Below, piece after piece: positions 4,393-4,752 of a DNA stretch of 5,025 nucleotides; the stretch's first letter is position 1, and each line of letters opens with the position of its first letter. Below the pieces are notes generated by a model, which saw only the letters and a program-made list of their open reading frames with translations, searched no databases and was not told where the DNA came from. This DNA is from a virus (Duplodnaviria > Heunggongvirae > Uroviricota > Caudoviricetes). The stretch is from IMG/VR virus record IMGVR_UViG_2681813313_000011; one strand, 5' to 3'. A program made the translations under genes and the position numbers.

Positions 4393-4548
4393 TTACTCCT
4401 CAGGTTCGTAAGCTGTGAAGACAGCGACCTCCGTCTGGCCGGTTCGGATTCGTACCTCGCAGAGGTCTTTCCTCGTTACCAGTGCCGTCACTATGACGGT
4501 TAAACAGATGACGATCAGGACGATTAACATCGCCTTTTGCTGCTTCAT
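4393..4548 (-). CDS. hok: Hok/Gef-family type I toxin (51 aa)
   Basis: Translation MKQQKAMLIVLIVICLTVIVTALVTRKDLCEVRIRTGQTEVAVFTAYEPEE is a near match to the HokD/RelF sequence as I recall it. AAGGAG Shine-Dalgarno 9 nt upstream of ATG 4548. The 70-aa track ORF is an in-frame upstream extension. Confidence 0.9.
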   Translation of the reverse strand: MKQQKAMLIVLIVICLTVIVTALVTRKDLCEVRIRTGQTEVAVFTAYEPEE

Positions 4549-4723
4549 AGCCTGCTTCTCCTTGCCTTTCGGCACGTAAGAGGCTAACCTAGATTTGCCG
4601 TTCATAGATTGAGCCTCAGATTAATGTTAAGCGTCTTGCAGGACGCGTAATGTTAACTGGGGCTTTTCTCTATCTGCCTTTGGTGTTCATGCCTGAGACA
4701 GATAGCCTCAAGCACCCGCAGCC

Positions 4724-4752
4724 ATTCTACTTAACTCCCGTCACCTCGCCAA
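4724..4752 (-). promoter_or_regulatory. Candidate sigma70 promoter for the hok mRNA (long leader)
   Basis: Minus strand: -35 TTGGCG (4752-4747), 17-nt spacer, -10 TAGAAT (4729-4724). Predicted start about 170 nt upstream of the hok ATG, consistent with the long structured leaders of hok mRNAs. Confidence 0.3.

Follow-up and report, generated by a model that had tools for sequence, protein, structure and literature searches.

What keeps a toxin of the Hok family in check when its antitoxin seems to be missing? The question is raised by a stretch of viral DNA (Caudoviricetes; IMG/VR record IMGVR_UViG_2681813313_000011), whose whole length of 5,025 nucleotides (nt) is called the window below. 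An initial annotation described in it an intact hok gene for which neither a Sok antisense RNA nor a proper mok frame could be found, and suggested that the toxin is regulated differently or that the locus is decayed. The computational analysis reported here leads to another answer: region 4297–4752 is, very probably, a complete and canonical hok/mok/sok type I toxin–antitoxin locus of the hokD/hokW clade, placed in the nin/Q region of an Escherichia coli lambdoid prophage. A Sok gene, recognized by sequence and homology, is present on the forward strand within 4562–4673, in the very interval (4560–4700) where an antisense gene had been thought absent. Neither decay nor a different kind of regulation needs to be invoked, since a complete leader, Sok, mok and all of the elements known from plasmid R1 are found. 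The span 4393–4752 first assigned to the locus proves too narrow, because the terminator and the fbi element (4343–4331) lie downstream of 4393.

The type of locus is a textbook one, already known, with near-identical members that have been characterized, and the copy itself is widespread: out of 5,426 complete genomes of E. coli, 2,088 contain the stretch 4300–4900 at a coverage of at least 80%, and in them the coding sequence (CDS) bears the annotation hokD. RefSeq records for the locus list this CDS alone, with no sok noncoding RNA (ncRNA) and no mok, and such a listing can mislead readers and pipelines into concluding that the antitoxin is absent. The value of the present check is then corrective, and it concerns three points: Sok is unannotated in RefSeq, the Rfam model bearing its name is hok-sense, and an in-frame mok is normal.

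The Sok Antisense Gene

Where is the antitoxin? The features recognized on the forward strand are:

4562..4590 (+), Sok promoter: −35 TTGCCT (4562–4567), 17-nt spacer (4568–4584), −10 TAACCT (4585–4590); from a pattern match and identity to sokW
4597..4673 (+), predicted Sok antisense RNA of ~77 nt; start at G4597 by alignment to the annotated 5′ end of K-12 sokC
4597–4610 (+), Sok 5′ tail GCCGUUCAUAGAUU, 14 nt, single-stranded (unpaired or weakly paired in the fold), the presumed recognition region
4611–4665 (+), long, imperfect Sok hairpin; from the fold and RNAalifold
4664 to ~4673 (+), U-rich 3′ tail of Sok, CUUUUCUCU, after the hairpin

Together these supply the forward-strand pair of promoter and terminator that had been reported as lacking, and they are resolved by homology, by a pattern derived from the family and by folding. 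The promoter is 100% identical to that of sokW, a functional antitoxin (PMC8621323), the −35 box, the spacer and the −10 box being the same in both, as is the hok Shine–Dalgarno (SD) region. When the relaxed family pattern TTGNCN-N17-TANNNT is run over both strands of the 5-kb window, 0.47 sites are expected by chance and two are found, and these two are exactly the Sok promoter and the hok promoter.

The layout is also conserved. For the comparison, 62 related loci were collected with one genome per species; combined with the earlier loci, they yield 29 distinct leaders that could be aligned. The 17-nt spacer and a G located 7 nt after the −10 box are kept in 29 of 29 loci, and the TTG..17..TA...T arrangement in most of them, with Escherichia, Kluyvera, Pantoea and Erwinia among the genera represented. 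Across these loci the −35 box reads TTGCCT or TTGACC, except for TTGCTT in one (L064) and for one decayed copy (L017), and the −10 box reads TAACCT, TAATCT, TACTCT or TACCTT, with the critical T1, A2 and T6 kept outside the hokC type.

Folding points in the same direction. The Sok RNA (79 nt as folded) reaches −33.3 kcal/mol, against a mean of −16.6 for shuffled sequences (z = −6.3). RNAalifold applied to 16 diverse Sok sequences returns a single hairpin, preceded by an unpaired tail and followed by the invariant GGGGCUUUUCUCU, and four of the hairpin pairs carry compensatory double changes. Invariant or almost invariant, too, are some U-G pairs of the hairpin, whose counterparts on the hok strand would be A·C mismatches; and in every one of 27 loci (27/27) the fold of the Sok strand is more stable than that of its complement, the mean difference being 10.2 kcal/mol. 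The hairpin carries an extension of 16–18 nt that it has in common with sokW and that is missing from sokC and from R1 Sok. A literature search for "sokD" or "mokD" returned nothing relevant.

Which strand does the Rfam "sok" family describe? RF01794 ("sok") matches the window at 4717..4543 (−) along its entire length (model positions 1–157 of 157), scoring 110 bits where the gathering score is 59. The K-12 hokC/sokC locus (L002) was used as a strand control. There, RF01794 matches the sense strand of hokC/mokC (L002 754..602, 118 bits), and the annotated sokC ncRNA (L002 653..711) lies within that match on the opposite strand. It follows from this control that RF01794 describes the leader of the hok mRNA, and that Sok is its partial reverse complement; the model spans the whole 157-nt hok leader as far as the hok ATG. 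The strand of the Rfam match therefore has to be inverted in order to place Sok. Taking the match at face value, with "sok" on the minus strand, was considered as well and is ruled out by the K-12 control, the model being hok-sense.

The mok Leader Frame

A second question is whether the locus has a true mok. Two features on the minus strand bear on it:

4605..4393 (−), mok reading frame of 70 codons, with a 19-codon leader MNGKSRLASYVPKGKEKQA in frame with hok; from the list of open reading frames, ATG at 4605
4617–4614 (−), mok SD, GAGG, 8 nt upstream of the mok ATG; read from the sequence and conserved in the alignment

The upstream extension of hok had been noted before, correctly, as in frame and as the only one; what does not stand is the conclusion that a proper mok is missing. 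By its sequence, the in-frame extension is mok. In K-12, mokC (16751..16960) and hokC (16751..16903) have a common stop codon and are in frame; VT2-Sakai annotates a 70-amino-acid "MokW-like" CDS; in Stx2a_F422 the annotated modulation protein and killing protein end at the same position; and in Stx2 phages a 70-residue Mok and a 51-residue Hok have one stop. The Mok-Hok sequence of the window shares 87% identity with MokW-HokW and 68% with K-12 MokC-HokC, and the layout is the same; tblastn with it matches query residues 1–70 or 1–69 in loci of Escherichia, Photorhabdus and Citrobacter. In R1, a stop codon in mok has consequences only if it is placed before the start of hok; what counts is therefore translation as far as the initiation region of hok (PMC9841398). 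Given this requirement, and the same arrangement in mokC and MokW, an in-frame mok is no defect: outside plasmid R1 it is normal, and no sign of decay. The SD GAGG is the same motif as that of R1 mok (PMC9841398), and Sok covers both this SD and the start codon.

The hok mRNA and Its Conformational Switch

Is the message equipped for the control exerted in R1? The features of the hok mRNA, all on the minus strand, are:

4752..4724 (−), promoter of the hok/mok mRNA: −35 TTGGCG (4752–4747), 17-nt spacer, −10 TAGAAT (4729–4724); sigma-70-type, 9 of 12 consensus positions
4717–4297 (−), full-length hok mRNA of ~420 nt, starting with GGGUGCUUGAGG; from position 1 of the RF01794 model, at 4717, and a terminator scan
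4717–4706 (−), tac element GGGUGCUUGAGG, at the mRNA 5′ end; paired with fbi when the full-length RNA is folded and with ucb when the truncated one is; nearly invariant in the 29 loci
4663–4659 (−), ucb, or anti-SD, GCCCC; its partner is the mok SD in the fold of the full-length mRNA, and tac both in that of the truncated mRNA and in the consensus structure of Rfam
4585–4580 (−), dcb, AGCCUC; pairs with the mok SD in the fold of the truncated mRNA, in agreement with the published R1 model
4385–4364 (−), 3′ stem-loop GGCGGGGGAGAAAUCCCUCGCC, the expected protective 3′ end of the truncated mRNA; from the folds and from the analogous last stem-loop in Tr-hok of R1
4343–4331 (−), fbi element CCUCAAUGCACCC, complementary to tac; pairs with mRNA nt 1–12 in the minimum free energy (MFE) and centroid structures
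4324–4307 (−), intrinsic terminator of the hok mRNA, AACCCGCTTCGGCGGGTT then TTGTTTTTTC, its T run reaching 4297; from the terminator scan

The promoter and the terminator are those recognized at the outset, the former at about 170 nt from the gene: the predicted start of the mRNA, G4717, lies 169 nt upstream of the hok ATG. The −10 box is kept in the relatives in the leader alignment, and fbi is conserved in hokW, in phage Evi and in K-12 hokD.

When the full-length RNA (418 nt) is folded, tac pairs with fbi and ucb with the mok SD (MFE −170.6 kcal/mol, z = −7.5). In the fold of a truncated RNA of 372 nt, which is without fbi, tac pairs with ucb and the mok SD with dcb. These in silico predictions reproduce the closed and open conformations of the R1 model (PMC9841398). 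Besides Sok, all of the other regulatory elements defined in R1 are present: tac, ucb, the mok SD, dcb, fbi, the 3′ stem-loop and the terminator.

A separate observation concerns the 3′ untranslated region (UTR) of hok. The Rfam model of isrK, an Hfq-binding small RNA (sRNA) of Salmonella Gifsy-1, gives a sub-threshold match of 27 bits (gathering score 50) at window 4303–4384 (−). This weak match covers the two hairpins of the UTR, the 3′ stem-loop and the terminator, which are similarly spaced; it may reflect chance or a distant relationship, and no claim is based on it.

The Hok Toxin

The toxin gene itself is described by two features:

4548..4393 (−), hok toxin gene, 51 codons for amino acids, encoding MKQQKAMLIVLIVICLTVIVTALVTRKDLCEVRIRTGQTEVAVFTAYEPEE; from the list of open reading frames
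4563–4558 (−), hok SD, AAGGAG; read from the sequence, with AGGAGAAG invariant in alignment A1

Both the intact Hok-family reading frame in the prophage and its strong SD are borne out. Against the Pfam family HOK_GEF (PF01848) the protein scores 79.9 bits, with a cut-off of 22, and profile positions 1–42 of 42 are covered; 50 of its 51 residues (98%) are identical to K-12 HokD (RelF). This near-identity and the position upstream of DUF968/YdfU and Q place it in the HokD (RelF) orthologue group, and RefSeq records 100% identical to the stretch give the CDS at this position the name HokD. Codon positions 1 and 2 of the coding sequence show 0.04 differences per site, a clear sign of constraint.

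One residue deserves mention apart. Tyr47 of Hok is encoded by the TAC of a TACG motif (window 4407–4410, −), and TACGAA is invariant in the six loci aligned (6/6), R1 among them. A preprint describes A-to-I editing by TadA, converting Tyr to Cys, at the equivalent position of hokC, hokD and hokE. Editing at Tyr47 might thus add a further level at which toxicity is controlled.

Comparison with Known Loci

The closest characterized relative is hokW-mokW-sokW of the Stx2 prophage Sp5 (VT2-Sakai), which has 93% nucleotide identity to the locus of the window over 417 nt. Alignment A1 shows no difference between the window, hokW and phage Evi over the stretch that runs from the −10 box through the hok ATG. 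Like the locus of the window, that of hokW belongs to a lambdoid prophage and has an extended Sok hairpin, a 70-residue in-frame Mok and a 51-residue Hok. There are differences as well. The Sok 5′ tail is GCCGUUCAUAGAUU in the window and GUUCAGCAUGGAUU in sokW, and the corresponding mok codons read MNGKS and MLNTC (mokW), respectively; the C-terminus of Hok is TAYEPEE in the window and VDYESEK in HokW; and hokW is found among early genes of the ead/ant type, whereas the copy of the window is upstream of DUF968-RusA-Q.

Experiments on this relative have been reported by Takada et al. in 2021 (PMC8621323). HokW is toxic, and sokW expressed from its own promoter neutralizes it; a promoter-less sokW mutant unmasks the toxicity, and sokW provided in trans rescues this mutant. 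The sokW RNA is detected by northern blot; after mitomycin C it falls and HokW rises, in a RecA-dependent manner, and deletion of hokW-sokW halves the release of Sp5. The probe for the hokW mRNA used in that work, YO-597 (CCTTGCCTTTCGGCACGTAAGAGGCTAACC, PMC8621323), is identical to window 4560–4589, that is, to the Sok −35 box, the spacer and most of the −10 box. We infer that the "pro-less" sokW allele changes TAACCT to GAGCCG; this reading comes from the sequences of primers YO-421/422 set against the wild type, and not from the published figure.

The name hokD comes with a different history in K-12. In the Qin prophage relE precedes hokD, and rem, ydfU (which corresponds to DUF968) and ydfT (Q) come after hokD; the downstream synteny (small reading frame, DUF968/YdfU, Q) is as in the window, and the 3′ UTR, fbi and the terminator are alike. 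However, K-12 hokD has lost the whole leader, with tac, ucb, the mok start and most of the Sok gene. Since its homology to the window begins only ~14 nt upstream of the hok ATG, abutting relE, K-12 hokD is a truncated derivative and the window holds the intact ancestral form; the latter displays the state of K-12 hokD prior to the loss of its leader. This truncation probably explains why the name "HokD" evokes a decayed locus. The possibility that the copy in the window is itself a remnant of the K-12 kind was considered and is ruled out, as it has the leader that the K-12 copy is missing.

Two further systems frame the comparison. The K-12 hokC-mokC-sokC (gef) locus has the same architecture, with an in-frame mok and with sokC overlapping the mok start, but its Sok hairpin is shorter, without the extension of 16–18 nt; its −35 box is TTGACC, its −10 box is a poorer CACTCT, and IS186 lies directly downstream of hokC. 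The R1 hok/mok/sok locus (parB) shares tac, ucb, the mok SD GAGG, the 19-codon mok leader, dcb and fbi, and its Sok promoter overlaps the hok start region, as in the window. R1 Hok has 43% identity to Hok of the window and belongs to the same Hok fold family. The locus of R1 differs in being plasmid-borne, with a role in post-segregational killing, and in its mok, which is out of frame (mok ATG at nt 116, hok ATG at nt 174; PMC9841398), whereas in the window the two starts are in frame and 57 nt apart.

A Hypervariable Sok Tail

A further point concerns the 5′ tail of Sok, which coincides with mok codons 2–5 (window ~4591–4610). Divergence was measured by region as pairwise difference per site among 13 close loci of the hokD/hokW type:

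4602–4592, core of the Sok 5′ tail: 0.44
hok third-codon positions: 0.069
rest of the leader: 0.076

Taken over the tail, the values are 0.35–0.44 differences per site against ~0.07 elsewhere, so that among near-identical prophage paralogs the tail diverges ~6 times faster than the third-codon positions of hok. A single Shigella flexneri genome has three co-resident copies (L009, L012 and L015) that bear three different tails. Does this variability serve a purpose? Tentatively, the 11–14 nt of the tail might be regarded as a hypervariable specificity cassette, perhaps selected to give mutually insulated Sok RNAs that do not cross-neutralize in polylysogens, although this proposal is somewhat less than an even bet. 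If it is true, insulated tails would ensure that, when one prophage is lost or induced, the Sok of a second one does not hide the event. Alternatively, the variability could come from relaxed constraint on a segment that is unpaired.

Proposed Mechanism and Role

How might the locus work? The mechanism outlined here for the copy in the window rests on folding and on homology to R1 and hokW-sokW. The minus-strand promoter (4752–4724) would give rise to a stable mRNA of ~420 nt. In the full-length molecule the 5′ tac element (4717–4706) would pair with the 3′ fbi element (4343–4331), and ucb, GCCCC, would sequester the mok SD, a state in which the mRNA is expected to be neither translated nor bound by Sok. 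Slow trimming of the 3′ end would then remove fbi, tac would pair with ucb, and the mok SD would move to the weaker stem with dcb. Ribosomes could now start at the mok ATG (4605), traverse the 19-codon leader and open the start region of hok. The product may be Hok or, because the mok and hok frames coincide in this locus, a 70-residue Mok-Hok fusion; the peptide would enter the inner membrane, and the cell would be killed or lysed. As long as it is continuously made, the labile Sok transcribed from the plus strand, a perfect complement of the mok SD and of the start codon, would block the translation of mok and trigger cleavage of the duplex by RNase III.

What would the prophage gain? With lower confidence, and in analogy to hokW-sokW, Sok may drop and Hok may climb upon induction, aiding lysis and phage release. 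As hok is oriented like the nin-region and Q genes that flank it, we also infer that early transcription, once antiterminated, would run on into hok and collide head-on with the Sok promoter. It is possible, though on balance not likely, that the main role is another one, namely abortive infection and phage exclusion or prophage addiction in place of help with lysis. The R1 hok/sok system has been linked to the maintenance of plasmids and to phage defence (PMC8621323, introduction), and hok genes are ~4-fold enriched in prophages; on the other side, hok loci are not enriched near defence systems, and the sole direct data on a close relative favour facilitated phage release (PMC8621323). The roles in lysis, exclusion and addiction are compatible with one another, as the same molecular mechanism would serve each of them.

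How firmly can a complete and working locus be claimed? Several points weigh against it. The support for the copy in the window is in silico and by homology, with transcripts and toxicity known from its relative hokW-sokW; and, because the Sok 5′ tail and mok codons 2–5 differ from those of sokW and mokW, the results obtained with hokW carry over by homology only. The Sok promoter matches 7 of the 12 sigma-70 consensus positions, and a strict scan of the plus strand for sigma-70 and terminator consensus calls neither a Sok promoter nor a Sok terminator. Given those 7 matches and a stem that is long and imperfect, this result is read as a false negative. The toxin falls below the curated cut-offs of two NCBIfam models, NF007279 (Hok family toxin subfamily; 49.5 vs 73) and NF007290 (HokA equivalog; 38.9 vs 89). 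Finally, as far as the summary in a bioRxiv preprint goes (10.1101/2025.08.07.668861), the chromosomal hokA, hokB and hokC tested earlier gave no post-segregational killing and no activation by rifampicin, and were suggested to be inactive, so that an intact sequence alone is no proof of activity. The two NCBIfam models had been tried as evidence of membership, and were dropped in that capacity since the scores are under their cut-offs.

The behaviour of the chromosomal loci gives some weight to the view that the locus is complete in sequence and yet silent, a domesticated or inert copy that is carried passively, its mRNA never activated or its Hok sub-toxic. Decay of the host prophage nearby agrees with such a view: there are a TerB pseudogene, a frameshifted DUF977 gene and an IS1203-type end in a SEC-C gene. 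Yet every regulatory element of the locus is intact, its identity to the loci of the inducible phages VT2-Sakai and Evi is 93–96%, the hok codons are under the constraint given above, and the near-identical hokW-sokW is an active pair that affects phage release (PMC8621323). A silent copy is thus rather unlikely.

The weakest reading, that of a hok without Sok and without a true mok, controlled otherwise (e.g., by phage transcription or RNA editing only) or left as a remnant like K-12 hokD, could appeal to the empty strict scan, to the lone hokD CDS in RefSeq and to the fact that K-12 hokD truly is a remnant, but it is highly improbable in view of the full RF01794 leader at 110 bits, a Sok promoter and body essentially identical to the tested sokW, promoter geometry and a hairpin conserved across genera, the in-frame mok that is the norm for mokC and MokW, and folds in which tac, ucb, dcb and fbi display the switch.

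Genomic Setting

The complete hok/mok/sok locus has as its same-strand neighbours a small hypothetical gene, DUF968 (YdfU-like), RusA, the antiterminator Q and three tRNAs, a set of genes that marks the surroundings as the nin/Q region of a lambdoid prophage, as the first description of the DNA had it.

Other features of the window are worth recording. Immediately downstream of Q, three tandem tRNA genes occupy 1379–1625 (−); they are Ile, Arg and Arg in a 99.8%-identical record. Downstream of this Q-tRNA block, 433–605 (−) matches the prophage sRNA STnc100 (RF02076) with 100.8 bits against a gathering score of 47; in a 2026 preprint STnc100 is related to the PasD sRNAs. At ~774–1235 (−), corresponding to 2477–2905 of the closest RefSeq record (L001), that record has a TerB-family (tellurite resistance) pseudogene with an internal stop, beside a small DUF3927 gene; the pseudogene is a sign of local prophage decay.

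At the other end of the window, L001, the closest genome, ceases to be identical beyond 4923; 4924–5025 instead matches the end of an IS1203 element (IS3 family), where the transposase 3′ end lies on the minus strand. This IS1203-type end cuts the 3′ end of a large SEC-C-domain gene ~170 nt upstream of the hok promoter, and the stop codon at the end of the SEC-C gene is attributed to it, since the element begins at ~4924.

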